The notes: generated by a model not told the origin, from the sequence alone. DNA of 64,000 nucleotides from Candidatus Omnitrophota bacterium (GCA_041651455.1 JBAZJG010000008.1:283-64282); one strand, 5' to 3'. Shown: positions 1,992-17,831, counted from the stretch's first letter. Program-made: numbers and translations.

Positions 1992-4157
1992 TTAGAGCTT
2001 CCTTGCGGTCTTCCTGAGTTCGAATACTTCTATAACGTCGCCGGGTTTCAGGTCGTCGAAATTGCTGAGCGCGATACCGCACTCGAAGCCCTCCGCGACC
2101 TCCTTGACGTCGTCCTTGAAACGCTTGACCGAGCCGATCTTGCCTTCATAAACCTTGTCCTTGTCCCTCCAGAGGCGGCAACCGGCGTTCCTGGTTATCT
2201 TGCCCTTGGCGACAAAGCATCCCGCGATAGTCCCCGCCTTCGTGACCTTGAAGACCTGCCTGACATCGGCGCGGCCCATGAAGACCTCGGTTATAGTCGG
2301 GTCGAGCATACCTTCCATGGCGTTCTTTACGTCGTTTATCGCCTCGTATATGATCCTGTAAAGCCTGACATCAACCTTCTCGAGCCTGGCCTTCTGCTCG
2401 CCCTCAGGCGTATAATCCACATGGAAACCGATGATGATCGCGTTCGAAGCGGCGGCAAGCATGACGTCCGATTCGTTTATGCTCCCGGCGCCCGAATGTA
2501 TAACATCGAGCTTCACGTCGCTCGTGCCGAGGCCTTTCAGCGACTGTTCGATCGCTTCGACCGAACCCTGCACGTCGGCCTTTACTATTACCCTCAGTTC
2601 CTTGGCCTTGCCTTCCTTGACCTGCTGTGAAAGCTCTTCGAGCGTTATCCTCTTGACCGGCTGCATCTGCGCCGCCTTGGCTTCCTGCTGGCGCTTCTCG
2701 ACGAGCTCCCTGGCCGTCTTCTCGTCCGGGACGGTGAAGAATATGTCTCCCGCCTCGGGCAGTCCCGCGAGGCCGAGTATCTCGACCGGCTTCGACGGGG
2801 GCGCCTCATTGAGCCTGTGGCCGAGGTCATTTATCATCGCCCTGACCTTGCCGTAATGCAGGCCCGCCACGACTATATCGCCGGGCCTCAGCGTGCCCTT
2901 CTGTACGAGGACGGTAGCTATCGGGCCGCCGCCTTTGGATATCTTGCCTTCTATCACGACGCCCTTCGAATGCCCGGTCGGGTCGGCCTTCAACTCGAGC
3001 ATCTCCGCCTCGAGCAACAGCATCTCGAGAAGTTCATCGATGCCCTTGCCCGTCTTCGCCGAGACGCCGATCATGACGGTCTTTCCGCCCCAGTCCTCGG
3101 ACATGAGCCCTACTTCGTTCAGCTGCTTCTTGACCCTGTCCGGGTTCGCTTCGGGCTTATCTATCTTGTTCATCGCGACGACTATCGGTACCCCTGCCGC
3201 GCGCGCGTGGTCGATCGCCTCTTTCGTCTGGGGCATTACGCCGTCATCTGCGGCGACTACGAGTATTACGATATCCGTCGCCTGCGCGCCGCGCGCCCTC
3301 ATGGCGGTAAACGCTTCGTGGCCGGGGGTATCGAGGAATGTCACGTTCCCCTTGCCTACTTTGACCACATACGCGCCGATATGCTGCGTGATGCCGCCGG
3401 ATTCCTTGTCGGTAAGGCTCGACTTCCTGATAGCGTCGAGCAGCGAGGTCTTGCCGTGGTCCACATGGCCCATCAACGTTACGACCGGGCCGCGCGCGAC
3501 GAGCTTCGTCTTGTCCTCGACCTCGAAGGCCTTCAATATCTCCTGTTCCTGCGTGAGCGGCTTCTCGAACTCAAAACCGAAATCCACGGCGATAAGGTTC
3601 GCGACGTCGATATCCACCGCCTGGTTTATCGTCGCCATGACCTTCTGCCTCATCAACCTTACGATCAGGTCGTTAGGCCTCGCGTTTATCTTCACGGCGA
3701 GGTCCTTCAATGTCATCGGGAATTTAGCTATGAGTTTTACGGGTTCTTTTTTGGCTGCCGGCGCCGGGGGCGCAACAGGCACGGTTGGCTCCGCCGCGGG
3801 CATGGCTGGCTTCGCCGGCTCAGGCTTTACCGCGGGTTTGGCTTCGACCTTCGGAGCCGCCACGACCGGTTTTTGCTCGACTTTAGGGACGACAGGTGCG
3901 GGCTTCGGAATGACCGGCGCCGGAACCGGTTTGGCTTCAACCTTCGGCTCTACCTTGATCTCAACCTTCGCCTTGATTTCTTTTTTCTTAGGCGCGGCCT
4001 TTACCTTGGCTTCGGCCTTTGGCTTGGCTATTTTCTTTTCCTTGACGGCTTTGACTACGGCTTTTACGGCCTTGACGACTTTCGCCGCGGCCTTAGGTTC
4101 GGCTTTCTTGGTCTTCTTCACTTCCGCTTTCTTCGTCTCGTCTTTGGTTTTTTTCAT
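1992..4157 (-). CDS. infB: Translation initiation factor IF-2
   Basis: 721 aa. It has a K/A/P/V-rich low-complexity N-terminus, a GTPase G-domain (GHVDHGKTSLLD, DTPGHEAF, NKIDK) and the C-terminal IF2 beta-barrels. It directly follows nusA. Confidence 0.95.
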   Translation of the reverse strand: MKKTKDETKKAEVKKTKKAEPKAAAKVVKAVKAVVKAVKEKKIAKPKAEAKVKAAPKKKEIKAKVEIKVEPKVEAKPVPAPVIPKPAPVVPKVEQKPVVAAPKVEAKPAVKPEPAKPAMPAAEPTVPVAPPAPAAKKEPVKLIAKFPMTLKDLAVKINARPNDLIVRLMRQKVMATINQAVDIDVANLIAVDFGFEFEKPLTQEQEILKAFEVEDKTKLVARGPVVTLMGHVDHGKTSLLDAIRKSSLTDKESGGITQHIGAYVVKVGKGNVTFLDTPGHEAFTAMRARGAQATDIVILVVAADDGVMPQTKEAIDHARAAGVPIVVAMNKIDKPEANPDRVKKQLNEVGLMSEDWGGKTVMIGVSAKTGKGIDELLEMLLLEAEMLELKADPTGHSKGVVIEGKISKGGGPIATVLVQKGTLRPGDIVVAGLHYGKVRAMINDLGHRLNEAPPSKPVEILGLAGLPEAGDIFFTVPDEKTARELVEKRQQEAKAAQMQPVKRITLEELSQQVKEGKAKELRVIVKADVQGSVEAIEQSLKGLGTSDVKLDVIHSGAGSINESDVMLAAASNAIIIGFHVDYTPEGEQKARLEKVDVRLYRIIYEAINDVKNAMEGMLDPTITEVFMGRADVRQVFKVTKAGTIAGCFVAKGKITRNAGCRLWRDKDKVYEGKIGSVKRFKDDVKEVAEGFECGIALSNFDDLKPGDVIEVFELRKTARKL

Positions 4158-5342
4158 TTATTTTTTTGCCAGCTCTTTCGCGCTCTTGAGTATCTTTTCC
4201 GCGGTCTTCTCGCCGATACCCTTTATTTTAGTGAGTTCCTCGACCGATGACTCCGCTATCTTCGCGATAGTGACCAACCCTGCGCCTTCAAGAAGCGCCT
4301 TCGTCTTCGCACCGACACCGTCGACCGATGATATATCACCGGCCTCTTCCTTCGCGGCCGGCTCCGGCATCACCGCTTCAGCCGCGGCCTTTGCCGCGCC
4401 TTCGACGGCCGGCGTCTTCGGCTTGATATCTATCTCCCATCCGGTAAGCTTCGACGCGAGCCGCACGTTCTGGCCTTTCTTGCCGATGGCCAGGCTCAGC
4501 TGGTCGTCGTCGACCGTGACCTGCGCGGTCTTCGACTCCTTATCGAGCTTTATCGTAGATATCTTCGCGGGATTGAGCGCCGCGAGGACATATTCCTTCG
4601 TGTCGTCGCTCCAGCGGACGATATCTATCTTCTCGCCCTGAAGCTCTTTCACGATATTCTTCACGCGGGAGCCCCTCATTCCCACACAGGCGCCCACGCA
4701 GTCGATCTTCTCGTCCTTGGAGAATACCGATATCTTCGTCCTGTCGCCGGCTTCCCTCGATATGGACTTTATCTCGACGATGCCCTCGTATATCTCGGGT
4801 ATCTCGAGCTCGAATAGCTTCTTGACGAGGCCCGGGTTCGCGCGCGACAGCACTATCTGCGGGCCCTTGCCGGTCTTCTTTACCTCGAGCACATACGCCT
4901 TTATGCGGTCGCCCTGCCTGAAATTCTCTTTCGGCGACTGCTCGCTCTTCGGTATAAAACCCTCGGTCTTGCCGAGGTCGACGATTATATTACCCTTCTC
5001 GAACCGGTAGACCGTGCCGTTGACTACGTTGCCTACGCGGCTGTTGTAGTCGGTGAATATGACGTCGCGCTCCGCTTCGCGGATCTTCTGGATTATGATC
5101 TGCTTGGCGGTCTGCGCGGCAATGCGGCCGAAATCCTCGGACTTTATCTCCTTCGCGCCAGAGAATACCTTGACCTCGCCGTTCTTCCTGTCTATCTTGA
5201 CCGTGACGTCGTCGGACAGCGTGCCGAGCGCCTTCTTCGCGGCGCTGACAAGCGCGCTCTCGACGGCCGTCATCAGGATCTCGCGGTCTATCCCCTTGTC
5301 TCTCTCGAGGTGATCCAGTACTGTTAACAGTTCTCCGTTCAT
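4158..5342 (-). CDS. nusA: Transcription termination/antitermination factor NusA
   Basis: 394 aa. It has the NusA N-terminal domain (LTVLDHLERDKGIDREIL), S1 and KH domains, and a C-terminal HhH-like tail. It lies in the conserved rimP-nusA-infB order. Confidence 0.95.
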   Translation of the reverse strand: MNGELLTVLDHLERDKGIDREILMTAVESALVSAAKKALGTLSDDVTVKIDRKNGEVKVFSGAKEIKSEDFGRIAAQTAKQIIIQKIREAERDVIFTDYNSRVGNVVNGTVYRFEKGNIIVDLGKTEGFIPKSEQSPKENFRQGDRIKAYVLEVKKTGKGPQIVLSRANPGLVKKLFELEIPEIYEGIVEIKSISREAGDRTKISVFSKDEKIDCVGACVGMRGSRVKNIVKELQGEKIDIVRWSDDTKEYVLAALNPAKISTIKLDKESKTAQVTVDDDQLSLAIGKKGQNVRLASKLTGWEIDIKPKTPAVEGAAKAAAEAVMPEPAAKEEAGDISSVDGVGAKTKALLEGAGLVTIAKIAESSVEELTKIKGIGEKTAEKILKSAKELAKK

Positions 5343-5354
5343 AGTTGTTCCCTT

Positions 5355-5819
5355 CTAAAATTCAAGATGCAGCTTCGCTTTCATGATCACTTCGCGCGGC
5401 ACGGACACTTCCCTGCCGTCGGGCAATTCCAGTTTTATGCTGTCTTCGCCGACCCATTTCAGCGCCGCCGAATACTCCCATTTCCCGTCCACGGGCGCGT
5501 TCAAAACCACGTCGAGCTCCTTGCCTATGACCCTCTCGAAATCGCTGGTCCTGGCAAGTTTCCTGTCGAGGCCCGGCGACTGCACCTCAAGCATGTAATG
5601 GCTCTCGATCACGTTCGCCTCTTCCAGCAGGCCTTCTATCCTGCGGCTCAGCGCGCCGCATTCGCCGATGCTTATCCCGCCCCTTTTATCGACGGTAAAG
5701 CGCATGACCATGCCGCCGCTCTCGTGCCTGTATGTCAGGTCGACAAGCTCGACGCCTGCCTCGGAAAGCGCCTGCGACGTAAGTTCCCTTACTTTTTCCA
5801 ATATAACGTTATCTTCCAT
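5355..5819 (-). CDS. rimP: Ribosome maturation factor RimP
   Basis: 154 aa with RimP/YhbC-family sequence (VELVDLTYRHESGGMVMRFTVDK...). It is the first gene of the rimP-nusA-infB operon. Confidence 0.9.
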   Translation of the reverse strand: MEDNVILEKVRELTSQALSEAGVELVDLTYRHESGGMVMRFTVDKRGGISIGECGALSRRIEGLLEEANVIESHYMLEVQSPGLDRKLARTSDFERVIGKELDVVLNAPVDGKWEYSAALKWVGEDSIKLELPDGREVSVPREVIMKAKLHLEF

Positions 5820-5946: not shown

Positions 5947-7974
5947 TTATTCGACGATTTTTGAGTAAGATTCCGTCTCAATGGCCTTGTCCGTGAATAC
6001 GGTCCTGGAACCGGCGGCTTTCAGCGATTGCAGGCCGTCAATGACCGGATATACCGCCTTGTCAAGCCATAGCTGGACGAGCGCGGCGTCGAAATCCTTC
6101 TCCGGGCCGCCGCCCTGCCGGCCCCTCATCTGGAACTGGTCGAGCTGTTCCCTGTTCATCTCCAGCATCGACTCCTTCTCCTTGGCTTGCGCCACGAGCT
6201 CGGCCGCAGCTTCCGGCGTGTTGGCCGGGTCATTTATCTTCGCGTTAATGTCGGCCAGCTCTTTCTCGAGCGACTGTATCTCGGTATTCAGCTTATCCGT
6301 CTGCGCGGCCATCATCTCCTTGACCTTTTTCTGCTGTTCGGACATGAACGTGAGCCACCTTACGGCCCAATCGCAGATCCCCTTGCCCTTCTGCAGGATC
6401 GTGTCCACTTTAAGATAGACGACCTTGTTCGCCGGGTCCATAAGGCCGTTGTTGACCGACTTGAAATCCTCATTCTCAAAGAGCGATTTCGCGGCGCCGG
6501 AATACGAGTCCACCGAGCCCTTAATCGGCTCGCGCCCTAGCGAGAACAGGAAATAATCCCCGACGTAGCAGAACGCCGGCTGGAACGCCATGCCGAACGG
6601 CAGGTTCATGTATTTGATATCGACGCCCTTATAGGATTCGGACTGCATGCTCCCGCCCTGCGTGAACTGCGCGAGCATCTTGTCTATAGCTTCTTTCTTG
6701 TCGACCTTCAGGAAGACGACGAACTGCGGCATCGGTATCATCCCGTCAAGGTTTATGTCGGTCAGGCACATGCCCGTCTCGTCTCCGAGCGCCGGGATGA
6801 TGTCGTTCTCTATGCTTATGCCCATCTGTTTCTCGAATCCGGCTATCATGTCGTTGAAGGTCGGGCCCTGGTTCACCTTGGCCGCTTCATTGCCCATCTC
6901 TTCCTTTATGTATTTCCAGTACGCCTTCCATTCAAAGGTATCCCAGCTGTACCATATCGTATTTGCCGGGGCCAGTTTCATCGCCGTGTTCTTGCGCGGC
7001 TTGACCGAATAGAAATCCCTGAAGAACGGTATCAGCTTCGCCTTGTCGAGGGTTAACTGCATCCTCTCCTTGGTTATCTTGCCGGGATATTTCGCGTAGC
7101 TGAACGACTTGAACCCGCCGTAGACGCCGAGCGTCTTGTCGAGCTGGTCCCGGAAGATACGGCCCGGGTCCGGCTGGGCACCGCTTGCTTCCTTGGGCGC
7201 CGGTACGGCGTCCGCGATGTGCTTGATGCCTGCCATCATGAGCCCGATATCGCCGAAGGCGACCGTCTCCGCACCTTTAGGGAACTTCGCCATCGCGTCG
7301 GTATAGTCCTTGTCCTGCGCGAGCGAGAGGAACTTCTTGTCGGCCACGTCGCAGCAGGAGGTAGCCGCCTTCTTGCCCAGGCCTATGACGAGAATATCCT
7401 TTATCTGGACGTAGGCGATGCTGACCTTATCGTCGAGCTTGACGACGGTCAACTTCTTGCCCTTGTAATTCTCCTCCGCGACCTCGTATTTCCTGCCGGC
7501 CTTGTTGAATACCTTCGCGAGGAAATCTATGAATTTCGTCTCGGGCTTCACCCTCGTGGCCAGCGTGACATTCGAAGCCATTTCAATGACACCTGAGGGT
7601 GTCATCTCAACTTTGCCCGACGGGTAAACCGCTACCGCGATCTCCTTGCCGAAATATTTCTCGAGGACGAGCCCGCCTATGAAGCTTGAAAGCTCCGTCC
7701 GGGCGGCCCTGAAGTTCTCGACATCTTCCTTCTTCGCGCCGCTCTTCTCCATGAGCATCTCAATGTCTATCTTCTCGAGGTTCTTATAGAGACGCGAGGC
7801 CTTGAACTCCTTGACCTGCCTGTCCACCTCGGAGAACTTCATGAAAAAGACGGCATCCGCCGGAAGTACGGACTCGACGGGAGTCGGCTTGGACGCAAGC
7901 GTGAAAAGGACGGCCGCGGCAACCGCGACGGCCGCAACGGATATGGCTGTAATTATAATAGCGGATTTCTTCAT
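5947..7974 (-). CDS. Large N-terminally membrane-anchored extracytoplasmic protein with a C-terminal coiled coil (family not confidently recognised; native-GC copy of a paralog pair)
   Basis: 675 aa. It has an N-terminal TM segment (MKKSAIIITAISVAAVAVAAAVLF), a long globular region, and a C-terminal heptad-rich segment (LEKELADINAKIN...). About 58% GC. It is clearly paralogous to 10116..12125 (shared blocks SRLYKN, KEIAVAVYPSG, IPALGDE, LPFGMAFQPAFCYVGD, VRWLTF). Confidence 0.8.
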   Translation of the reverse strand: MKKSAIIITAISVAAVAVAAAVLFTLASKPTPVESVLPADAVFFMKFSEVDRQVKEFKASRLYKNLEKIDIEMLMEKSGAKKEDVENFRAARTELSSFIGGLVLEKYFGKEIAVAVYPSGKVEMTPSGVIEMASNVTLATRVKPETKFIDFLAKVFNKAGRKYEVAEENYKGKKLTVVKLDDKVSIAYVQIKDILVIGLGKKAATSCCDVADKKFLSLAQDKDYTDAMAKFPKGAETVAFGDIGLMMAGIKHIADAVPAPKEASGAQPDPGRIFRDQLDKTLGVYGGFKSFSYAKYPGKITKERMQLTLDKAKLIPFFRDFYSVKPRKNTAMKLAPANTIWYSWDTFEWKAYWKYIKEEMGNEAAKVNQGPTFNDMIAGFEKQMGISIENDIIPALGDETGMCLTDINLDGMIPMPQFVVFLKVDKKEAIDKMLAQFTQGGSMQSESYKGVDIKYMNLPFGMAFQPAFCYVGDYFLFSLGREPIKGSVDSYSGAAKSLFENEDFKSVNNGLMDPANKVVYLKVDTILQKGKGICDWAVRWLTFMSEQQKKVKEMMAAQTDKLNTEIQSLEKELADINAKINDPANTPEAAAELVAQAKEKESMLEMNREQLDQFQMRGRQGGGPEKDFDAALVQLWLDKAVYPVIDGLQSLKAAGSRTVFTDKAIETESYSKIVE

Positions 7975-8028
7975 GGGACTCTCCTTGGGTTAATTAAGAG
8001 GCATTATACCACAACTTTAGGGGAGTTT

Positions 8029-8292
8029 CTACGCCCATTCTGAGGCATATCTGTCAACAAGGTCTCTAATCATCCTCTGGTATTTCGTGTGATGCCTGTT
8101 TGCCTCACGCTTGAAAAATTCTATGCTAGATTTTTTCAGCGCGATTGTTATCTTCTGCGTCTCTTCCGACTTAGCAAGCTCAACCGGTGGCGGAAGAAGA
8201 TCCTTTATTCTCTTTAATCCGCCCACGGGCATGTCCGAAACATCAGTCCTCTTTTTCATAGTACGCTTTGCCCTTTCTCCAATAACCGGCAC
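8029..8292 (-). CDS. brnA: BrnA antitoxin (ribbon-helix-helix, type II toxin-antitoxin)
   Basis: 87-aa ORF. Its C-terminal half, QKITIALKKSSIEFFKREANRHHTKYQRMIRDLVDRYASEW, matches the BrnA pattern (ITIRLD..vl.wFK..A...G.gYQT.IN.iLR.y). It overlaps the upstream brnT 3' end by about 50 nt, so the true start may be the internal Met (MKKRTD or MPVGG). Confidence 0.75.
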   Translation of the reverse strand: MPVIGERAKRTMKKRTDVSDMPVGGLKRIKDLLPPPVELAKSEETQKITIALKKSSIEFFKREANRHHTKYQRMIRDLVDRYASEWA

Positions 8293-8527
8293 CGATTATC
8301 CTTATCATCCCCTGCCGGTATGTAAACCTTACTGTCATTACTTTATTCCCGGCCTTTCCGATACAGAAAAACCTTTCCTCATGCTCCGAATGGCCGGAAT
8401 CAACGTATATCTTTCTTTTTGTATCAAGGAAAGCTCGCGAGGCAATCTTAAAATCTACCCCGTGCTTCCTTATATTTTCCCTTTCTTTCGATTCGTCCCA
8501 GGTGAACATACCTGTGATTTTATCCAT
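8243..8527 (-). CDS. brnT: BrnT toxin (DUF497 ribonuclease, type II toxin-antitoxin)
   Basis: 94 aa: FTWDESKERENIRKHGVDFKIASRAFLD...DSGHSEHEERFFCIGKAGNKVMTVRFTYRQGMIRIIGAGYWRKGKAYYEK. This is the canonical BrnT/DUF497 signature (F.WD..K...N..KHGV.F.EA..vF.D......D..HS..EeR....G.......vvyt.R.....RIISAR.A...E...Y). The toxin-first gene order matches BrnTA. Confidence 0.8.
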   Translation of the reverse strand: MDKITGMFTWDESKERENIRKHGVDFKIASRAFLDTKRKIYVDSGHSEHEERFFCIGKAGNKVMTVRFTYRQGMIRIIGAGYWRKGKAYYEKED

Positions 8528-8531
8528 GTTT

Positions 8532-8560
8532 AGTATATCCTTTGGTCCTCATATTGTCAA
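8532..8560 (-). promoter_or_regulatory. Sigma70-like promoter directly upstream of brnT (-35 TTGACA 8560..8555, 17-nt spacer, -10 TATACT 8537..8532)
   Basis: The minus strand reads TTGACAatatgaggaccaaaggaTATACTaaacATG. The -10 ends 4 nt before the brnT ATG, which would give a leaderless or near-leaderless mRNA. The AAGGA inside the spacer could alternatively be the SD for a promoter lying further upstream in the AT-rich stretch 8560-8600. Confidence 0.4.
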
Positions 8561-8600
8561 TATTTATATACATACTATTATACATTATATTGGGCATAAT

Positions 8601-8642
8601 AAATCCCTCCTTTACCTATATAGACGGCATGAGGAGGGATTT
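8601..8642. repeat. Perfect 10-bp inverted repeat AAATCCCTCC (22-nt spacer) GGAGGGATTT between the stop of the 297-aa gene and the brnTA promoter
   Basis: Read directly: aaatccctcc tttacctatatagacggcatga ggagggattt, then tctttc. It could be a terminator hairpin for the upstream operon, or an operator for BrnA (RHH antitoxins bind palindromes). Confidence 0.6.
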
Positions 8643-8657
8643 TCTTTCAAATATTGC

Positions 8658-9533
8658 TTAAGGCGTATTATTAGTTTCGGTAATGCAAGTAAACTTGATT
8701 GGTAACGGGGCCGATTCAACTTCGAATCTTTTTCCTTTATATTTGCCTGATATTATGACAACTAAATCGTGCCTCTCTCCCGCTTTAACAAAATCGGAGA
8801 GTGGCTTGCATGGCCAGACGGAAGAATGCCTGTAATCCCAATCTAAGGAAAGGTCGTATGTGAATTCCTGCTCTTCGTTTGTCAGGGTAATACCTAATGG
8901 CACCGAGCGCCTGTGCGGACTGCTCCAAATCCTTTCCATATAAAAAAAGATGCTAACATCTTCTAATTCAACCGGTTCGCGGCTGCCCGTAGACAATAGC
9001 ACGCTGATCGGGATAGGGCCGAAAGGTGAGCATCTTTTGTTCTCTGTCTCAATACTCATGACGATGAAATCTTTTGGGACAATTGTCAAAAAAACCGTTT
9101 GCGACTTTATCCTGATCTTGTCATTGACCTCATATATTGCGGCAATGGAATAATCCCCCTTCCTGCTGAAATCATAGTAGCCCGATACTCTAATTGAAGT
9201 ATGAAATGTTCCTGATGGCGGGAAGCCTGGTTTTCTAATCAACTGTAATAAATCGCCATCGGGACCTTTAATTTTAAGATTCTCCACCAGTCCTTCTTTT
9301 TGGCAGGATATCTCGGATATTATATTTTTGTCCAATCCTTCAACCGGTTCAATATGAAATGCGAGTTCTATTGGTTCTCCTACATTGAATATCTCTTTCT
9401 GCAATTCAAGCCTGCAATGTAATCCGCCCGAAGAGATACCCCATTCTTCAGCAAAACATGTCATAAATATAAAATTGGCGGCGAATACCGATATTATCAA
9501 TAAATACTTCGTGTAATCCTTTTTAGGAGCCAT
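8658..9533 (-). CDS. Secreted hypothetical protein encoded directly after the PEP-CTERM protein gene
   Basis: The ORF is 8658..9551. The likely start is MAPKKDYTKYLLIISVFAANFIFMTCFA (signal peptide, possible lipobox) at 9533, 7 nt after the PEP-CTERM gene stop. About 40% GC. No recognisable domain. Confidence 0.55.
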   Translation of the reverse strand: MAPKKDYTKYLLIISVFAANFIFMTCFAEEWGISSGGLHCRLELQKEIFNVGEPIELAFHIEPVEGLDKNIISEISCQKEGLVENLKIKGPDGDLLQLIRKPGFPPSGTFHTSIRVSGYYDFSRKGDYSIAAIYEVNDKIRIKSQTVFLTIVPKDFIVMSIETENKRCSPFGPIPISVLLSTGSREPVELEDVSIFFYMERIWSSPHRRSVPLGITLTNEEQEFTYDLSLDWDYRHSSVWPCKPLSDFVKAGERHDLVVIISGKYKGKRFEVESAPLPIKFTCITETNNTP

Positions 9534-10116
9534 GGTTTTTCCTAAAACCAAGCAGCGGGAGGCCGGCGAGAATCAGTATAATGGTCGAGGGCTCGGGGAT
9601 AGGTGAAACCAGCAATTGGGCACTATGCCCCTCATTGTATTCCAGTGAGGAGAATATATCCGTTTTCGCATATTCGGAACGAATATTGAACCCGACAAAT
9701 GGGGTTGAAACTCCCTGCATAAAACTAGTAACTTCAAATAATGCGTCTTCGCCGTATCCAAGATCTTCCGGCAAAATAAGAACACCTAAATAATTCCCTG
9801 CATCATAATCAGATGATGTCAGCTGCCCGTCGCTGCTTCCATAGCCGTATATTTGAACGGTTTTACTCCAAAGAGGTAATCCGTATGGGTTGACAGACAA
9901 ATACGCTGTGCTTATTGGCCATAAAATCTGGCTGGTTGGGAATTCCACTACACCTCTTGTGGGTTCGCATGCCGTAAGATAGCAGTTGGTCAACACGCCC
10001 CCATCTAGGTACACTGAACCGTCATCGGAAGGATTGATGACTAACGCAGAAGCTGAAGCAACCTGAGTCATAGCCACGATAAATACGGCCATAATGCCGA
10101 ATTCGATCTTGTTCAT
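9523..10116 (-). CDS. PEP-CTERM sorting-domain protein (exosortase substrate)
   Basis: The C-terminus VSPIPEPSTIILILAGLPLLGFRKNHGS is a PEP motif, hydrophobic helix and basic cluster, which defines PEP-CTERM. The N-terminal signal peptide is MNKIEFGIMAVFIVAMTQVASASA. The ATG at 10116 overlaps the TAA stop of the upstream paralog by 1 nt (TAATG); the track start at 10140 is a TTG. Confidence 0.75.
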   Translation of the reverse strand: MNKIEFGIMAVFIVAMTQVASASALVINPSDDGSVYLDGGVLTNCYLTACEPTRGVVEFPTSQILWPISTAYLSVNPYGLPLWSKTVQIYGYGSSDGQLTSSDYDAGNYLGVLILPEDLGYGEDALFEVTSFMQGVSTPFVGFNIRSEYAKTDIFSSLEYNEGHSAQLLVSPIPEPSTIILILAGLPLLGFRKNHGS

Positions 10117-12125
10117 TATTTGAAAAAGGTCTCTGTACAAATCACGTTCTCCGTGAAGACTGTCTTTGAACTTGAGACATTATTCGAAGAAAGGCCTTCC
10201 ATGATAGGATAGGCCGCCTTTTCCACCCAAAGCCTTATCAAGGGCACATCCATATCCTGTCTCGTTACCGCGACACGATGTTTCTCCTGCTCTTCCAAGT
10301 GGGCCAACTGCTCTTTGTCGATCTTCAACATGGAATTCTTGTCCCATATCTTTAAATCGAGTTCAGATTTTACCTCTGCCAAAACAGCGGGGTCGGCACG
10401 CTGCGCTTTCATATCTGCCAGCTCCTTTTCCAGTTCCTTGATGCCTGCCCTTAACCTGTCCATCTGGAGCAATATCATCTCTTCGTATTTCTTCTGTTTT
10501 TCGTAGTACGCCTTGTTCTCTTCGGAAATATACGTAAGCCACCTCAGACCCCAATCGCAAAAATCCCTGGCTTCCCGCAACAAAGCATCGGTATCCACAA
10601 AACGAACCTGGTTTGCCGGCTTGTCGGGGTTGCTACTAACAAGCCTGAAATCCTCGCTGTCAAGAAGCGACTTCGCGGATCCGGAACAAGAATCTATGGA
10701 ATTCTTTAATGGCATGCGGCCCAAAGAGAGCAAAAGATTATCTCCAACGTAACAATATGCCGGTTGGAACGCGAGGCCGAATGGGAGGTCCAGGTATTTT
10801 ATCTCAACATTATTGTACGTCTCCGTTTTCACGGCCTCCTCCCCTTCGATGTCACTCCGGAAGAATTTGCCCAAAACCAGGTCTATCGCCTGTTTGTCGT
10901 TTACTTTGACTATATAGATGAACTGCGGTGATGGTATAAGGCCGTCGTAATTCACGTCTATCAGGCACAAGGCCCCTTCATCCCCGAGAGCGGGTATCAG
11001 GTCATTCTCTATGCTGAAGTCCACCCAACTCTCGAACTCGGCAACGATATCGTCAAATCCGTGGGACTCAACCCCTTCCGGCGTTCCTTTTATCATGGCT
11101 TCCTTCAGGTACTGCCAGTATGCCCTCCACGCGACCGTATCCCATCCGTACCATATCGCATTAGGCGGGATGAACTTAAGCGTATTGTTCCCGCGCGGGG
11201 CCACTGAATAGCTTTCCCGGAGGAACGGGATCATCTTGGATCTGTCGATTTTTACGGTCATAACGCTCTTTTTTATCTCCCCGGGATATCTGGCGTAGAA
11301 GAAGGTCCCGAAACCGCCGTATTCGCCCAGGCGCAGGCCCATATTTTCCTTGAACGCTTTTAATATATCCGCTGATATCCCTTTCCCGGCCGGTTCCGGG
11401 ATGGCGGTTACGGCATTTTTCAATCCTTCCGCTATTCTCCCGATATCACCGAAAGCGGCCATCTCGGCGCCTTTCTCAAGCCCTGACACCGCCCCAATGA
11501 AATCCTTGTCCTGCGCCAACGCGGGAATTTTCCTGCCGGCGGCATCATAGCAGGACATGACAACCATCTTATCCGTGCCCGCCACCATCACATCCTTGAT
11601 CCGGACCATAAACACGCTCGTCCTGTCCCCTATCTTCACGACGGATATCTTCCTGCCGCTGCAGTCCTCTTCTTTCTCCTCAAATATCTTTCCCGGTTTT
11701 TTGAACATAATGGCAAACAGGTCGGCTATTTTTGATTCCGGTTTCACCTTCGCGGCGAATAATACGCCCGAAGGATACACGGCAACGGCTATCTCCTTCC
11801 CGAAATACTTCTCAAAAGGAAGCCCGTCGATAAAACCCGATATGTCCGCTTTCCATACTCCTACAGCTTGCGCCTGTTCCTTCTTAGCTCCGCTCTTTTC
11901 AAGCAGCATTCCTATATCGATGGCTTCCACATTCTTATAGAGCCTCGATGACCTAAACTCCTCGAATTGCCTGTCGGCATCGAACAATTTCACGAAGAAG
12001 ACCGGGCCGGCAGGCAGCGCGGACTCGATCGCCTGCGGTTTTGCGATATAACCGACATAAATGCCGGCCGCCGTCGCCGCAATGGCAATAAAAATGACTG
12101 TGACTGCTATAAACGGTTTTTTCAT
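10116..12125 (-). CDS. Large membrane-anchored coiled-coil protein, lower-GC xenologous paralog of 5947..7974
   Basis: 669 aa with the same architecture (N-terminal TM, shared motif blocks, C-terminal coiled coil ELEKELADMKAQ...). About 48-50% GC versus about 58% for the other copy. Its start overlaps the TPR gene stop (ATGA at 12122-12125). Confidence 0.8.
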   Translation of the reverse strand: MKKPFIAVTVIFIAIAATAAGIYVGYIAKPQAIESALPAGPVFFVKLFDADRQFEEFRSSRLYKNVEAIDIGMLLEKSGAKKEQAQAVGVWKADISGFIDGLPFEKYFGKEIAVAVYPSGVLFAAKVKPESKIADLFAIMFKKPGKIFEEKEEDCSGRKISVVKIGDRTSVFMVRIKDVMVAGTDKMVVMSCYDAAGRKIPALAQDKDFIGAVSGLEKGAEMAAFGDIGRIAEGLKNAVTAIPEPAGKGISADILKAFKENMGLRLGEYGGFGTFFYARYPGEIKKSVMTVKIDRSKMIPFLRESYSVAPRGNNTLKFIPPNAIWYGWDTVAWRAYWQYLKEAMIKGTPEGVESHGFDDIVAEFESWVDFSIENDLIPALGDEGALCLIDVNYDGLIPSPQFIYIVKVNDKQAIDLVLGKFFRSDIEGEEAVKTETYNNVEIKYLDLPFGLAFQPAYCYVGDNLLLSLGRMPLKNSIDSCSGSAKSLLDSEDFRLVSSNPDKPANQVRFVDTDALLREARDFCDWGLRWLTYISEENKAYYEKQKKYEEMILLQMDRLRAGIKELEKELADMKAQRADPAVLAEVKSELDLKIWDKNSMLKIDKEQLAHLEEQEKHRVAVTRQDMDVPLIRLWVEKAAYPIMEGLSSNNVSSSKTVFTENVICTETFFK

Positions 12126-13165
12126 GGGGTTGGCCTTTTTTTAGGGATCTGCAGTACATTATCTTTGTTCTCTTCCGCCTTCCTGAAATACATATCCGCT
12201 TTCTCGCGGTCGCCTTTTTCCGCGTATATCTCCCCGAGATACTGGTAAACCTCATACGATATAGAATTAAGACCGACGGCCGTTTCCAGGTACTCCCTCG
12301 CGCTCTCCTTGTCTCCGAGCCTGTAAGCGGTAATGCCGAGATTGTCCCATGTGTCTACGCCATACGGGTTATATATAACTGACATCGTGAAATCGCTCAA
12401 TGCCTGCTTGTAATTGCCTTGGCAAAAATACGTGAACCCGCGGTTATTCATGCCTTTATAGCTGAATGGATCTATAACAAGCGCCCGGTTATAATCCCTG
12501 ACAGCCTTATCAAACTCGCCCATATCCAGATATACCCCGGCACGGGCATAATATCCGCTAAACTCTTTCGGTCTCAGTTTTATTAACTCGCTAAAATCCT
12601 TGACGGCTTTTTCATATTCGCCCGCTTCCGAATAAGATATCCCGCGATTCCATAGCGTATTCGCGCTTACCGGGTCAGCGCTCAATGCCTCATTATAGCT
12701 TTCTATTGCAGAATTATACTCGCCTACATCGGTCATGGCGTTGCCCAGGTTATTATACGGAAGTTTGAAATTCGGGTTCATTTCGACCGCTTTTTGGAAG
12801 TCCGCAATAGCTTTTTCATTCTCCCCTTTTTGCCTGTACGCGCAACCGCGGTTATAATAGAGGTTCGGATTCCTGGAATTTGCCTCAAGGCCTTTTGAGT
12901 ATTCGGCAATGGCCTTGTCGTAATCACCCATTTTTATATACGCGTTCCCTGCCATTTTATAGGCATCATAGAACATGGGGTTTACCTCTATGGCCTTATC
13001 GAACTCCTTGATAGCTTCTTCATACCGGTGTTTGTTGAGATGGACGACGCCGCGGTTGAAATACTGGTTTGCGGTAAGTTTTTCTTCCCTTACTTCTTCA
13101 GCAAGGCAGCTTGAGGAGAGAATACATGCTGTTACGTAGAAAAGTAAAACCTTTGAAAGTTTCAT
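12122..13165 (-). CDS. Secreted tetratricopeptide-repeat (TPR) protein
   Basis: 347 aa. Signal peptide MKLSKVLLFYVTACILSSSCLA, then about eight 34-aa TPR units (recurring AxxxYxxAIxxxP / NxG.AY patterns). Confidence 0.85.
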   Translation of the reverse strand: MKLSKVLLFYVTACILSSSCLAEEVREEKLTANQYFNRGVVHLNKHRYEEAIKEFDKAIEVNPMFYDAYKMAGNAYIKMGDYDKAIAEYSKGLEANSRNPNLYYNRGCAYRQKGENEKAIADFQKAVEMNPNFKLPYNNLGNAMTDVGEYNSAIESYNEALSADPVSANTLWNRGISYSEAGEYEKAVKDFSELIKLRPKEFSGYYARAGVYLDMGEFDKAVRDYNRALVIDPFSYKGMNNRGFTYFCQGNYKQALSDFTMSVIYNPYGVDTWDNLGITAYRLGDKESAREYLETAVGLNSISYEVYQYLGEIYAEKGDREKADMYFRKAEENKDNVLQIPKKRPTP

Positions 13166-13205
13166 TTCGCACCTCGAAACGTTTTTAATTCTTTTCTAAT
13201 TAATA

Positions 13206-13244
13206 GGGACGCATGACCTGGGACGCCCCGTTATGACCTGTCCC
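13206..13244. promoter_or_regulatory. Direct-repeat element in the TPR operon upstream region: GGGACGC-ATGACCTG ... GGACGCC-ccgtt-ATGACCTG-TCCC (ATGACCTG copies at 13213 and 13233, 20-bp spacing; GGGAC/GTCCC inverted ends)
   Basis: Read directly from the 146-bp gap between the hydrolase stop and the TPR gene start. The two-helical-turn spacing suggests a dimeric or tandem DNA-binding regulator site. A 12-bp perfect palindrome AACGGAACCGTT follows at 13273-13284. Confidence 0.35.
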
Positions 13245-13311
13245 TTTTATCGCATCCCATATTTCTTATAAAAACGGAACCGTTGGCACTATTAGCAGTT
13301 TCATTTTCGCA

Positions 13312-14238
13312 TCACAAAAGTTCCCTGGCCGCATTAAGGGTATCGTCGCCGTAAGCCATGTGGTAGAAATGCCCCTGCCCCTGTATGGGGGTGAGCTTCG
13401 CGTTCGGGACGGTCTTCGAAAGCCACTCGCTGAACATCAGGGGGACCCAGCGGTCCTCCGTGCCGTGGCGTATATCGACGCGCATCTTTATCTTGCTGAG
13501 GTCGAAGCCCCATTCAAGGTAGATAACCTGCGCGTCGTATGACGGCCCTTTGGCCCCATTCCTGAACAATTCCTGGAAATCCCTCATCAGGATATTGGCC
13601 ATTTCGGGCATTAGGAACAGGTCCATGTCGGGCTTGCACATGCTAGAGCCCATCATCTTTACGAACGCCTGGGGGTTCTTCATCGTCTTCATTTGTAATC
13701 CTATAAGGGAGAACGGTATCTGGAAGAGCCACAGCGGGAGTTTCGCGCCGATCTTCGCGTAGAAACGGTCCATCGTCCCGAGCTTCTTGAGCGCCTCGGG
13801 GTCCCTGTAGAGAGGCACCGCGCCCGCAAGGTCAACGGCGAACAAAAGCCGGTCCGGAATGGAGTATGCGCATGCCAATACCGTAGGGCCGCCGCCGGAT
13901 ATCCCCATGACGCCGAACTTGCCGATGCCTAGATGGTCCGCAAGCGCAGCGATGTCCGCGGCTCCGTCGAGTATCTTCCTGCCGGGCAGGAAATCCGACT
14001 GCCCCACTCCGGGACGGTCGGGCACTATAATGCGGAAATTCTTCCTCTTTGCCGCGTGATGAAGCAGCATTACGTGGATATGCGAGCCGGTCCCGTGGGC
14101 AAATATTATCGGCGTCCCGGACGGATCGCCGTATTCGTAATACGCCAGGCGGCGCCCGCCGTCAAACGCAAGGAATTTTACTTTCGCCTGAAGCTCCTCT
14201 ATCTCTTCCTGGCTGATCAAGTCGGGCTTGTCGGGCAT
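13312..14238 (-). CDS. Alpha/beta-fold hydrolase
   Basis: 308 aa. Nucleophile elbow GISGGG (G-x-S-x-G), HGTGS oxyanion region and a C-terminal His. A strong SD (GGAGG) lies upstream at about 14245-14249. Confidence 0.8.
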   Translation of the reverse strand: MPDKPDLISQEEIEELQAKVKFLAFDGGRRLAYYEYGDPSGTPIIFAHGTGSHIHVMLLHHAAKRKNFRIIVPDRPGVGQSDFLPGRKILDGAADIAALADHLGIGKFGVMGISGGGPTVLACAYSIPDRLLFAVDLAGAVPLYRDPEALKKLGTMDRFYAKIGAKLPLWLFQIPFSLIGLQMKTMKNPQAFVKMMGSSMCKPDMDLFLMPEMANILMRDFQELFRNGAKGPSYDAQVIYLEWGFDLSKIKMRVDIRHGTEDRWVPLMFSEWLSKTVPNAKLTPIQGQGHFYHMAYGDDTLNAARELL

Positions 14239-14250
14239 AATTCCTCCTGA

Positions 14251-14799
14251 TTAAAATACGCTCTCCAGACAAAAACACGTCAATTCCTCTTCTTTGCCCC
14301 ATTCCACACAGGTAGGTTTGTTCCTGCACTCGGGGCATAGCAGGGTAATGTCGTCCTTATTAATATCAAGTGTACCACGCGTCTGGTGAAGGTCAAATAG
14401 CAATTTCAGGTACTTGCCGGCCACGAGGCGATGCAGGCTGTCCTTCTTCTTGAGCCCTAACCATTGGAAGACGCCCCGGTCGTTGCGTGAAGTATTGCAG
14501 GTAGGACACGACAGAACCGAATTATCCGCCGAATCGGGGCCGCCTCGGCTTCGTGGGATGAGGTGATCGACTTGTAGGCCTTCGAGCGCGCCGCAAAAGA
14601 CGCACTCCTTATCCAACTCCTGCTCCCTCTGCCACTCCCTTATCGTGCCGGACATCGTAGCGCTGCCGTCGCGCAGGGCCTTGAACCGGTCCGTGACAAA
14701 TCCGTAGTTGATGTTGCCCTTGAACGCGCTACGGGATATAAGCTTGGCGTATTCGTAGAGGATTTCTTCTTTTATGGTTTTGACGTAGGGTGGGGGCAT
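14251..14799 (-). CDS. HNH endonuclease with extra Cys-rich zinc-ribbon segments
   Basis: 182 aa. HNH core: CVFCG...QVDHLIPRSRGGPDSADNSVLSCPTCNTSRNDRG. A second Cys cluster follows (CPECRNKPTC...CFC). The roughly 70-aa N-terminus is unassigned. It sits at the edge of the low-GC defence-like block. Confidence 0.7.
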   Translation of the reverse strand: MPPPYVKTIKEEILYEYAKLISRSAFKGNINYGFVTDRFKALRDGSATMSGTIREWQREQELDKECVFCGALEGLQVDHLIPRSRGGPDSADNSVLSCPTCNTSRNDRGVFQWLGLKKKDSLHRLVAGKYLKLLFDLHQTRGTLDINKDDITLLCPECRNKPTCVEWGKEEELTCFCLESVF

Positions 14800-14870
14800 A
14801 GTATTGAGTTAGTTAATAATTTAAATATGTTGTCGCTAAATTTATTTCGATCTGTTCTTCCTCATTTCTA

Positions 14871-16565
14871 TTAGATTTTATACTTTTCGCTACATTGCTT
14901 AACTAATTTGTTCGATTTCGATAATTCGTTATCACTTAAATCTAATTTAAGGGAATCTATTATTTTGATTATACTCACTATTGCTTTGTTGAATTTTTTA
15001 TTTGAATTGATTATTTTTAAGCAATTTTGACAATATTCTTCGGCTTTCTTGCTTTCAAACGGAGGACATTTTTCTTTCATAATTTCATAGCGCAGCATCA
15101 TTAGGATAAAATATCTCAGCTTCTTGAACTTCCTATCTAGCTGCCCACGTCTGAATAGTTTATCTATGTTATATAACGCATAGGCGGACGTGTAGTACGG
15201 TAACATATAGTGATTATCTTTAAAGAGGTCGGGACCGAATTCAGAAAATAAGGTTCCAAAATATCTTGTTGCCATATCTGGTTTGTCAAAATAAAAACTG
15301 GCCATAGTCTTTATTTGGGTTGTTTTATCAATTATTCGTTTCTTCTCTACTCCTTTACTATTATATTGTTTAGAACGCCTTTCATAATAAAGCCTTTGCT
15401 TTTCTGGAAAAGTAGTATAATAGTCTTCCAAGCTTTTTTGAAAGTCTGAAAATGCTATCAAATCTTGTTCTTTTATTTCAGTTTGTCTGTTTGTAGACCG
15501 AATTACTTTAGATGTTAAATCTTTATTGTTTGTGGATATTAATTTTAGGGGCAATTTTACTTTTGGTGACACTAATGATCTGTTTTCAAACAATACATGA
15601 GATGTTTGGCAACCATTAATTATTTGGTAGCTGCTTATGGTAAATCTATCTCTTGTGGTTAGCATTGATTCAGCAACTATCGTTATACCATTGTTCAAAA
15701 CAACAAAGGCTTCTTTATCTTTTGTTTTTAAAGTATTTTGAATTTCCAAATTGACCTTATTGTCTCCCTGAAAATCTCTTACATTATCATAAAATACATT
15801 GGGAATTAAATCGCCGTTATCATCTGTCATTAATTTAATTATTGTTTCGGCCTCGATAATTCCCAAATAAGATTCTGCCACTCCAGTTATTACCGGCAGT
15901 GTAACTCTATTCGGGAATTCGAAAGCTTTTGTAACCGCCTGACCTATTTTTTTGTAAATGCTCTGTATCTCCCTAGCGTCGACAAGGCTTATTATAGTAT
16001 TAGAAAACAAGTTCTCATTTTCGATATTACTTTTCATCTCTTCTGTCTTAGCTTCGATATTATCATCTTCTGTCTTCACACCAAGAGTCACATAATATAG
16101 ATGGCATATTGGTTTCTCCTTAAGCAAATTCGAATTATCTATCAATTTGTTAAATAGCCTGATCTTTGAACGGGCTATTTTAGGCCATTTTATTTTAGGA
16201 TTTTCACTAACAAAATCTGAAACGGCCCAACCAAAGTTTCCAATTTCTTTTGTTTCGAAGCTTTTAGAGGTCTTAGATTGAATAAAAACAACCTCTGCGT
16301 GAACATCTCTATGCGATTTCAAGAAGTCTTCCAGCATATCTTGAGTTTCAATAACTTGTCTATTCAATATCAAAGCAAAGCCATCTAAGCCCAGAGCATC
16401 GTCTTTTCCTATATTTAATTCCTCGATATCGAACCGTTCTTCAGTCTTATTTTCAAGTAATGCAAAATTTACAAAATGCTCAAATTGCGTAGACTCATTT
16501 TTTTCATTTTCCAGCCCATTCGATGATAAAAATTCATTAAGATAACTTCTGGTAATTCTATCCAT
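14871..16565 (-). CDS. AIPR-like abortive-infection (phage resistance) family protein (family assignment tentative)
   Basis: 564 aa with no Walker motifs. The central block VVLNNGITIVAE ... YQIINGCQT resembles the conserved NG.QT core of the AIPR family; this is my recollection and no search was run. It is very AT-rich (about 33% GC) and has a strong SD (GGAGGAAAAC) before the ATG. Confidence 0.5.
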   Translation of the reverse strand: MDRITRSYLNEFLSSNGLENEKNESTQFEHFVNFALLENKTEERFDIEELNIGKDDALGLDGFALILNRQVIETQDMLEDFLKSHRDVHAEVVFIQSKTSKSFETKEIGNFGWAVSDFVSENPKIKWPKIARSKIRLFNKLIDNSNLLKEKPICHLYYVTLGVKTEDDNIEAKTEEMKSNIENENLFSNTIISLVDAREIQSIYKKIGQAVTKAFEFPNRVTLPVITGVAESYLGIIEAETIIKLMTDDNGDLIPNVFYDNVRDFQGDNKVNLEIQNTLKTKDKEAFVVLNNGITIVAESMLTTRDRFTISSYQIINGCQTSHVLFENRSLVSPKVKLPLKLISTNNKDLTSKVIRSTNRQTEIKEQDLIAFSDFQKSLEDYYTTFPEKQRLYYERRSKQYNSKGVEKKRIIDKTTQIKTMASFYFDKPDMATRYFGTLFSEFGPDLFKDNHYMLPYYTSAYALYNIDKLFRRGQLDRKFKKLRYFILMMLRYEIMKEKCPPFESKKAEEYCQNCLKIINSNKKFNKAIVSIIKIIDSLKLDLSDNELSKSNKLVKQCSEKYKI

Positions 16566-16651
16566 GTTTTCCTCCAGTTATATTTTGCTTTTAGTGACTC
16601 ATGACTTTAGAACGCTTCACTATAGAACTTGCCTCTTTTGACACGTCTCGT

Positions 16652-16879
16652 TTATTCTTTCTTTTTTGACCTCACGATCCTTATATCCCCTTTTAAATCT
16701 TTAACTTCATAACTTTCCGAAAGCAATAATCTTAATTTATTGGAATTGTAGGTTTTACTCCAAAAGGGTCTATCAAAATGCACTTCACCTCGCGCTGAAC
16801 CGGCATGGTGAATATGGAGAATCCTTCCTTTTTCAGATAAAAGAGATAAATACCTTTTACAATATTTAATTTTTATCAT
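16652..16879 (-). CDS. Small hypothetical protein (75 aa) between the AIPR-like gene and the 2-TM protein gene
   Basis: The ORF MIKIKYCKRYLSLLSEKGRILHIHHAGSARGEVHFDRPFW... has His-rich and basic character and low GC. It could be a small nucleic-acid-binding partner or a gene remnant. No confident homology. Confidence 0.3.
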   Translation of the reverse strand: MIKIKYCKRYLSLLSEKGRILHIHHAGSARGEVHFDRPFWSKTYNSNKLRLLLSESYEVKDLKGDIRIVRSKKKE

Positions 16880-16954
16880 CGTTCTCGCCTAGCCCATTTT
16901 ACCGTTTGTTTAAGTGGCAGAATCCAAGTACAATTAATCCATTTATTAGAATAT

Positions 16955-17731
16955 TTAACTAATACCGAATTCCTTTTTAAGACCATTAAAATCGTATATC
17001 TGTATATTTACTATCATATCTTTTCCTAATAGAAATTGATCAATTCTATTTTTTAATATTTCCTTTTCTTCATCATTAATCGGCGTTACGATTATAAGAT
17101 AAAAGAATAAATCTCTCTCGCTTTTTTCTAGGTTTCTCCATATATCCTCAAAATACTTTAAAGTTTTTCCTAGCCCATTAAATGGCGTATTTAATCTTGG
17201 AAAGTACTTTACTTCAAATACTGAGAACTGCAAGCTTGAATTTATTATGCCATCAGCGTAATATTTATTGCCTTTAAGTTCAAAACTTCTTTGTTTAAGA
17301 AACATATCTCCATAATCGCTTTCTAACTTTTTAAGAGCTAACTCTTCAGCAAGAAAATATTCAACTTTCGGATTTAATATTATACTTGCAGTAGCACTAC
17401 TTGTTTTATCTTCGGTAATATCTGAAACATCTTTATCCTTTTTATCTATTACATCTTTTATAGTTAAAGGTTTAACATTTTTTATCAAACCAGAAAATGC
17501 TTCATCTGTCTTAAAATCTGAAGGTGCGTATAGCACATGGTGTTTAAGGATTAATACTGAAAAAAACAGCATAACAAGCAAAACAGGGAATATCATGACA
17601 AACCAAACAAACAAATTTTGTATATTATCCGGAAGAATAGGCAATACGGCGCTTCCGCAAATCTCTGATATGCCGGCAAAGATTGCGATAATTGTTAAAG
17701 GATTTTTTATAGTATTTTTGGGTAAGTACAT
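16955..17731 (-). CDS. Membrane protein with two N-terminal TM helices and a cytoplasmic domain of about 170 aa (unrecognised; effector-like)
   Basis: 258 aa. TM1 is LTIIAIFAGISEICGSAVLPIL and TM2 is FVWFVMIFPVLLVMLFFSVLIL, followed by a charged soluble domain. About 30% GC, an SD (GAGGTG) upstream, and a TTGACA hexamer about 45 nt upstream. Confidence 0.6.
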   Translation of the reverse strand: MYLPKNTIKNPLTIIAIFAGISEICGSAVLPILPDNIQNLFVWFVMIFPVLLVMLFFSVLILKHHVLYAPSDFKTDEAFSGLIKNVKPLTIKDVIDKKDKDVSDITEDKTSSATASIILNPKVEYFLAEELALKKLESDYGDMFLKQRSFELKGNKYYADGIINSSLQFSVFEVKYFPRLNTPFNGLGKTLKYFEDIWRNLEKSERDLFFYLIIVTPINDEEKEILKNRIDQFLLGKDMIVNIQIYDFNGLKKEFGIS

Positions 17732-17831
17732 AATCGCACCTCAATCATCTAAAGCTAATTTACATTGCACTTCTGTCAAACTGTTAATGTACGAGGGGCG
17801 CAGTCAATATTTTCTGCTTAAGATTATTTTG

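Follow-up and report, generated by a model that had tools for sequence, protein, structure and literature searches.

DUF3352 paralogs beside TPR and PEP-CTERM genes upstream of rimP-nusA-infB in a Candidatus Omnitrophota genome

The 64-kb stretch of DNA analyzed here (the window) derives from a metagenome-assembled genome (MAG) of Candidatus Omnitrophota and carries two related genes, designated copy 1 or DUFn (675 amino acids (aa), 5947..7974) and copy 2 or DUFf (669 aa, 10116..12125), both on the minus strand like every other gene of this region. Read as it is transcribed, the local order is dxr, rseP, ispG, proS, a defense islet of 30–33% guanine plus cytosine (GC), genes for an HNH endonuclease (53% GC), an alpha/beta hydrolase (abhydrolase), a tetratricopeptide repeat (TPR) protein, copy 2, a PEP-CTERM protein and a 291-aa protein, then brnT, brnA, copy 1, rimP, nusA, and infB. 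Judged by their sequences, the two genes form an old paralogous pair within the uncharacterized DUF3352 family, copy 1 being the core member and copy 2 a divergent paralog carried in a cassette with TPR and PEP-CTERM genes; the pair represents further members of a known, uncharacterized family and not a new kind of system. The family is large and without published function, and as the Omnitrophota are uncultured, gene context is almost the sole handle on their cell-surface biology.

The initial annotation described the two genes as a pair of large paralogs with a shared architecture and roughly 40% identity, and full-length alignment bears this out, with 46% identity, somewhat above that estimate, and 65% positives from end to end (BLASTP, E=0). 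Identity amounts to 48% and 51% in the globular modules and 42% in the coiled coil; because the highest values fall in the globular modules, the similarity does not reflect low-complexity coiled coil, and the reading that only the coiled coil is similar is ruled out. Codon usage separates the copies as had been supposed: GC content is 55.8% in copy 1 and 49.9% in copy 2, GC at third codon positions (GC3) is 0.79 and 0.62, and an index similar to the codon adaptation index (CAI-like), computed with housekeeping genes as the reference, is 0.68 (host-like) and 0.48, respectively. The housekeeping genes themselves show a GC content of about 54–59%, a GC3 of 0.70–0.81 and a CAI-like index of 0.61–0.74.

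The family, left without a name in the initial annotation, is Pfam DUF3352 (PF11832). Copy 1 matches it with 65.2 bits against a cut-off of 26.8 (E=6e-18), over residues 358-583 only. Copy 2 gives no match to PF11832 even at E≤10 and does not reach the gathering threshold of 26.8 bits. Despite this, its homology to the family can be regarded as certain because of its identity to copy 1 and because the threshold is cleared by its nearest relatives, P0016 (36.1 bits) and P0017 (29.6 bits), and also by P0008 and P0018 (labels of the form P00xx denote homologous DUF3352 proteins, and L0xx DNA stretches of relatives). In the NCBI record of a Candidatus Omnitrophota MAG both proteins lie on one 84-kb contig, copy 1 under the name "DUF3352 domain-containing protein" and copy 2 as a "hypothetical protein." A 14-member profile retrieved 2,314 representative clusters (counted at 50% identity) at E≤1e-3 and 388 at E≤1e-30, and the family comprises length classes of about 580, 680, and 770 aa. 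A scan of genome contigs reached only 14 loci, all from Omnitrophota, and a homolog search begun from an alignment of 48 sequences added nothing to the 15 proteins already found. Literature searches found no papers on DUF3352/PF11832 and nothing relevant on Omnitrophota with PEP-CTERM proteins.

Copy 2 belongs to a tightly coupled run of four genes, which confirms the coupling to a TPR gene upstream and a PEP-CTERM gene downstream that had been noticed at the outset. The stop codon of the TPR gene (12122..13165) and the start of copy 2 overlap as ATGA, the stop of copy 2 and the start of the PEP-CTERM gene (9523..10116) as TAATG, and the PEP-CTERM gene and the last open reading frame (ORF) of the run (8658..9533) by 11 nt; owing to the TAATG overlap, the ATG at 10116 is taken as the true start of the PEP-CTERM gene, giving a protein of 197 aa (labeled PEP205). 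All four products have N-terminal signal or anchor sequences. The TPR protein (TPRf, 347 aa) contains eight repeats and an N-terminal signal sequence that can be read directly, whereas its identification as the TPR lipoprotein PrsT (TIGR02917) was rejected, the 125 bits obtained against a cut-off of 312 reflecting generic TPR similarity. PEP205 carries the sorting domain TIGR02595 (20.8 bits, cut-off 16), falls just under the cut-off of Pfam PF07589 (19.1 against 20.7 bits) and ends in the tail IPEPSTIILILAGLPLLGFRKNHGS, with a PEP motif, a hydrophobic helix and an RK cluster. It is the single PEP-CTERM-like ORF detected in the window; across the sampled DNA such tails occurred in 6 of 257 ORFs surveyed, five of them beside TPR and DUF3352 genes. 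The signal-peptide protein of about 291 aa that ends the run matched nothing in Pfam, NCBIfam, or PADLOC, and L007 lacks it.

Each of the two DUF3352 copies has a single N-terminal hydrophobic helix of about 22 residues and no cysteine in the first 30 residues, hence no lipobox. In copy 1 the anchor (residues 3-27; 7894..7968) is the sole strongly hydrophobic 19-residue window (Kyte-Doolittle mean 2.76) and was modeled by AlphaFold2 as a helix with low pLDDT (per-residue confidence). The full-length model (pLDDT 81.8, predicted TM score 0.74; 81.2 for the pLDDT of a body-only model) consists of this helix, an alpha/beta body, an antiparallel coiled-coil hairpin, and a C-terminal helix followed by a beta-hairpin. 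According to the model, with HHalign and in the second case residue conservation, the body is made of alpha/beta module 1 (residues about 31-312; 7039..7884) and alpha/beta module 2 (residues about 335-522; 6409..6972), and it can be described as an internal duplication of one such module, residues about 133-242 aligning with 415-522 at an HHalign probability of 98.4% (E=6e-15). This duplication appears not to have been described before, no published account of DUF3352 having been found. The hairpin (residues 523-620; 6115..6408), with helices at 523-580 and 587-620, is missing from the 580-aa family members (e.g., P0018) and is therefore best seen as an insertion, of about 100 residues, that distinguishes the Omnitrophota members from those shorter Pfam members. 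Thus, the designation "membrane-anchored coiled-coil proteins" given initially holds for the anchor and overstates the coiled coil, which accounts for about 100 of 675 residues.

Module 2 holds most of the invariant residues of the family, mainly Pro, Gly, Tyr, Trp, Asp, and Glu; they include no recognizable catalytic set, which points to a role in binding or as a scaffold. When PDB sequences were searched with a DUF3352 profile, only coiled-coil matches came up and no solved structure proved to be a sequence relative; the hairpin likewise gives generic coiled-coil matches in PDB and Pfam. In Foldseek searches of the PDB the full-length model found no strong match, TP0453 being second behind a coiled-coil protein, whereas with the body-only model TP0453 filled the top four places (E=5.8e-4 to 3.6e-3) at a probability of up to 1.00, a borderline best TM score of 0.49 and a sequence identity of 7–9%; it was the only globular PDB fold retrieved. 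The modules of DUF3352 may thus weakly resemble TP0453, an outer-membrane-associated protein of Treponema pallidum (PDB 3k8g, 3k8h, 3k8j), and a body of two TP0453-like modules would be, as a hypothesis, the first fold assignment for the family. TP0453 is an alpha/beta/alpha lipoprotein with amphipathic helices and has been proposed as a lipid or glycolipid carrier (PMC5421087). Like DUF3352 as modeled, it is periplasmic, alpha/beta/alpha and helix-rich; DUF3352 differs in having two such modules and a coiled-coil hairpin, and in being anchored by a predicted transmembrane helix where TP0453 is lipidated, and for DUF3352 lipid binding is only proposed.

Copy 1 can be regarded as a core ortholog, fixed directly upstream of rimP-nusA-infB across a family-level clade. 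The order DUF3352-rimP-nusA-infB is found in all nine distinct close-clade loci that keep the downstream flank (L001, L004, L008, L009, L011, L012, L013, L030, and the window, where rimP occupies 5355..5819). The protein is 90–92% identical to its same-position orthologs in L001 and L012, and its ratio of nonsynonymous to synonymous substitution rates (dN/dS) is 0.12–0.18.

The slot between proS/abhydrolase and DUFn is filled differently among relatives, and the simplest reading of the sequences is that it receives one of two alternative cassettes. The F cassette consists of TPRf and DUFf, in the window together with the PEP-CTERM gene and the gene of the secreted 291-aa protein, and the N cassette of a second TPR type, TPRn, and a PEP-CTERM gene. 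The arrangement with TPRf and DUFf upstream of DUFn occurs in three host subclades, namely the window, L015/L007 (L015 is a scaffold from another Omnitrophota MAG, 99.9% identical to L007) and L026, and DUFf was always found with a TPRf partner in the genomes examined. Copy 2 shows 72.8% identity to DUFf of L015 (codon-aware global alignment), 69% to the truncated L007 copy P0016 (BLASTP) and 54% to that of L026, while for TPRf of the window the values are 79% with L007_341 and 65% with the TPR protein of L026. Identity within types is 65–79% for TPRf and 71–89% for TPRn, as opposed to only 37–43% between TPRf and the TPRn proteins of L001, L004, L009, L012, and L014; no genome examined has both types. 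In N-cassette genomes TPRn is usually followed by a PEP-CTERM protein of 201–206 aa, which in L004 scores above the TIGR02595 cut-off, and in L013 and L014 the genes TPRn, PEP206, and DUFn are joined by 4-nt overlaps. The PEP-CTERM protein of the window has the sorting tail alone in common with this N-cassette family.

Exchange at the slot is visible in L030 and L015, whose DUFn genes share 97.7% nucleotide identity, yet are preceded by different cassettes (TPRn-BrnT-BrnA in L030; TPRf-DUFf, remnants, and BrnA in L015/L007), with identity across the junction passing from 97.7% to 95%, to 78% and to none. Furthermore, one and the same gene, "245," stands ahead of TPRf in L007 and of TPRn in L001. 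Loci for variable surface structures, such as O-antigen and capsule loci, hold alternative cassettes between conserved flanks. The N and F cassettes resemble them in being mutually exclusive, in having conserved flanks, in differing between near-identical genomes, in a GC content below that of the core genome and in each type spanning several host subclades. O-antigen and capsule loci carry sugar-biosynthesis genes, whereas these cassettes carry genes for a TPR protein, a DUF3352 paralog and a small sorted protein; the likeness is one of cassette layout, and selection for diversity on N and F is put forward as a hypothesis.

Two further observations concern these relatives. In some N-cassette genomes (L001 8448-9986, L012 6421-7986) the TPR/PEP-CTERM genes are separated from the core DUF3352 gene by an extra inserted gene, whose product of 512–521 aa has weak similarity to glycoside hydrolase family 2. 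In addition, L012, L022, and the source of P0016 (L007) are labeled "uncultured Planctomycetia" or "Dehalococcoidales" in public records although their core genes are 90–98% identical to those of the clade, which probably reflects mis-binning or misclassification.

The explanation favored here, and considered probable, is that the two genes are within-clade paralogs accompanied by exchangeable N and F cassettes and that DUF3352 serves as a non-enzymatic carrier or scaffold for PEP-CTERM proteins. The DUFf lineage would have been born by duplication inside the clade and retained with its TPRf partner; the F cassette would fill the slot used elsewhere by the N cassette, with TPRn and a different PEP-CTERM protein (in some genomes there is translational coupling between the N cassette and DUFn); and related Omnitrophota would exchange the two through homologous recombination, so that the lower GC content of copy 2 would be a standing property of the cassette rather than a sign of distant origin. 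In the cell, DUF3352 would be held in the inner membrane by its one N-terminal helix and expose to the periplasm the two homologous TP0453-like modules and the hairpin of about 100 residues. As a binding, carrier, or scaffold protein it might, with its TPR partner, handle small PEP-CTERM-sorted proteins, or the hydrophobic anchor or lipid thereof, on their way to the surface, and a swap of cassettes could vary the surface protein displayed. The periplasmic role is inferred from the export of all four cassette products, the coupling of both paralog lineages to TPR and PEP-CTERM genes, the weak resemblance of the fold to a lipid-carrier lipoprotein and the lack of a conserved catalytic motif. 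The locus thereby yields a testable hypothesis, that DUF3352, TPR, and PEP-CTERM proteins act as one module. A bolder version, which is rather improbable, sees here an undescribed accessory pathway in which carriers with two TP0453 modules and their cognate TPR proteins deliver or anchor small PEP-CTERM proteins at the Omnitrophota surface, N and F being long-lived alternative alleles under diversifying selection that change the protein displayed. None of these results overturns current understanding; they offer a useful lead on an unstudied family.

Several observations weigh against the favored explanation. The functional link is one of gene order in a single clade whose loci share ancestry, so that the observations are not independent, and no experiments or papers on the function of the family were found. 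No exosortase came up when the main ORFs of the window were scanned against Pfam, and the loci of L009, L012, and L026 are without a PEP-CTERM gene. In relatives that share ≤43% identity, DUF3352 has no adjacent or coupled TPR or PEP-CTERM genes, the immediate neighbors being genes for an SBF symporter, TatD/Dtd/RecO, or thioredoxin; at two of these distant loci, L019 and L021, TPR or PEP-CTERM genes lie only a few kb away. In L026, codon 155 of DUFf is an in-frame TAA (about 1118-1120), and in L007 the gene is broken by a frameshift (526 + 121 aa, a 1-nt indel at about 2825-2890 relative to L015); either event could represent decay of the paralog or assembly error, and DUFf may accordingly be dispensable. 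Lastly, the agreement between the DUFf and DUFn trees discussed below rests on one three-taxon comparison.

A general role in the envelope is a serious rival, possible although somewhat doubtful: DUF3352 would be an envelope-biogenesis factor (a lipid or lipoprotein carrier, or a tether from the inner to the outer membrane) with a substrate other than PEP-CTERM proteins, and its TPR/PEP-CTERM context would reflect synteny peculiar to the clade at a hot spot of recombination. The sheer number of clusters in the family, the distant members among housekeeping genes, the position of the core copy beside rimP-nusA-infB whichever cassette is present, the TP0453-like fold, and a diderm host with Lpt and lipopolysaccharide (LPS) genes would all fit such a role. 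It accounts less readily for the translational coupling of both paralog lineages to TPR and PEP-CTERM genes and for the scarcity of PEP-CTERM genes in the rest of the DNA sampled. The initial annotation had suggested that the family works in the envelope with secreted or exosortase-sorted partners and had proposed asking if homologs consistently neighbor such genes. They do so recurrently within the close Omnitrophota clade, in two cassette versions and often with 4-nt overlaps, which upholds the proposal at that level; the lack of linkage in the distant relatives and of an exosortase in the window counts against it. Compared with described PEP-CTERM/exosortase systems (XrtA/EpsH with the PrsT TPR lipoprotein), the locus likewise combines PEP-CTERM and TPR genes, here in one coupled run, and departs from them in that no exosortase was found in the window and the TPR protein falls below the PrsT cut-off; DUF3352 is not a described component of those systems.

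The origin of copy 2 can be approached through its relatives. In a neighbor-joining tree copy 2, DUFf of L015 and P0017 form a long-branched clade (100% bootstrap) nested inside the rimP-linked clade, after P0010, P0011/12, and P0014 split off (100% support), so that copy 2 would have arisen by duplication within the group and not come from a distant donor. The opposite view, that copy 2 and its neighbors are an island recently acquired from a more distant donor of lower GC content and that the paralogy is a coincidence of xenology, is unlikely on this ground. It could draw on the GC3 of the cassette (copy 2 0.62, TPR 0.53, PEP-CTERM 0.46, and the 291-aa protein, the lowest, 0.43), which lies below the host range, on the absence of copy 2 from L001, L012, and L018, which in their core genes are the nearest relatives, on the toxin–antitoxin pair and the AbiU/HNH islet alongside, and on the different cassettes of near-identical genomes, so that lateral exchange does occur. 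However, the DUFf and DUFn topologies agree, and DUFf distances scale with DUFn distances, the dN ratio being about 1.25 in two comparisons (DUFf evolves about 25% faster). The GC content of the F cassette is 5–8 points below that of DUFn in three genomes and shifts with host GC.

The toxin–antitoxin pair itself bears on this question. It lies at 8029..8527 and comprises a BrnT toxin gene (8243-8527; PF04365, 76 bits) and an overlapping downstream 87-aa ORF for a BrnA-like antitoxin (8029-8292), a toxin domain with an adjacent small antitoxin gene as in type II systems. The antitoxin, for which no significant family match was found, is kept in L007 and L030; it is 88% identical to its counterpart (3640-3960) in L007, where BrnT has been lost. 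In L030 the pair occupies the same place upstream of DUFn (815-1313) and shares 81% nucleotide identity with that of the window, the same value as DUFn. As BrnT-BrnA is also low in GC content, this sharing at the same site suggests that low GC is a long-standing property of the locus. The abhydrolase on the proS side of the slot (13312..14238; GC3 0.757) can be taken as native to the host, with same-position orthologs at 90% (L004), 81% (L009), and 73% (L011) identity. A single island spanning 8–18 kb was rejected, the region being a mosaic of native abhydrolase, F cassette, BrnT-BrnA, and AbiU/HNH islet; a scan found no tRNA in the window and a repeat search no att-like flanking repeats in 7900-18000, hence no integrase-type boundary can be drawn. 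The earlier placing of copy 2 inside an island therefore stands as regards flexible genome content and fails as regards foreign origin: copy 2 is best described as part of a flexible genome that relatives exchange with one another, and the locus illustrates clearly that what looks like a lower-GC "island" of foreign DNA may be a long-standing cassette that arose and recombines within a clade.

Least probable of all is that copy 2 is a redundant tandem duplicate drifting to loss, with TPR and PEP-CTERM genes functionally unlinked to either copy, since the interruptions of DUFf in L026 and L007, the deletion of the PEP-CTERM, 291-aa, and BrnT genes in L007, the faster evolution, weaker codon adaptation, and sub-threshold Pfam score of copy 2 and the unrelated neighbors of distant family members are offset by an intact ORF in the window under purifying selection (dN/dS 0.165 against L015, same as the core copy), an intact gene in L015 that makes the L007 split a possible assembly error, conserved ATGA and TAATG coupling, a TPRf-DUFf pairing kept in three subclades at 54–73% identity, and a parallel N cassette also coupled to DUFn. 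A pseudogene status of copy 2 in the window was rejected on the same grounds of an intact ORF and dN/dS.

A strong sigma-70-like, promoter-like site (TTGACA-17-TATACT, 8560-8532) is found just upstream of brnT; promoter-like and terminator-like sites were no more numerous than in shuffled controls, and it is their positions alone that are suggestive. On the proS side, the defense islet of 30–33% GC (14871-17731) comprises a gene for an abortive-infection protein, AbiU/AIPR (PADLOC, E=3.6e-125), together with a 75-aa ORF and the gene of a membrane protein of 258 aa without a family match; it is flanked by the HNH endonuclease gene, and no flanking repeats or tRNA were found. The HNH gene (14251-14799) is 92% identical to 58-606 of L029 though the DUF3352 protein there is only 52% identical to copy 1, and it therefore looks mobile. 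In L001 a 53-aa HNH remnant (70% identity) follows proS directly (5002-5163), and the spot after proS seems to have been hit repeatedly.

The remainder of the window consists of housekeeping genes and envelope clusters. LptC/A- and LptB-like genes are located at 41502-43019, and the segment 43006-62441 holds genes for a lipid A acyltransferase, a secretion- or pilus-like cluster related to type II secretion systems (T2SS) and type IV pili (PilM/PilO/T2SS-K/F/E), Kdo synthesis genes (KdsA-D-like), and three GT9 heptosyltransferase genes. The Lpt, Kdo, and heptosyltransferase genes point to a diderm organism with LPS.

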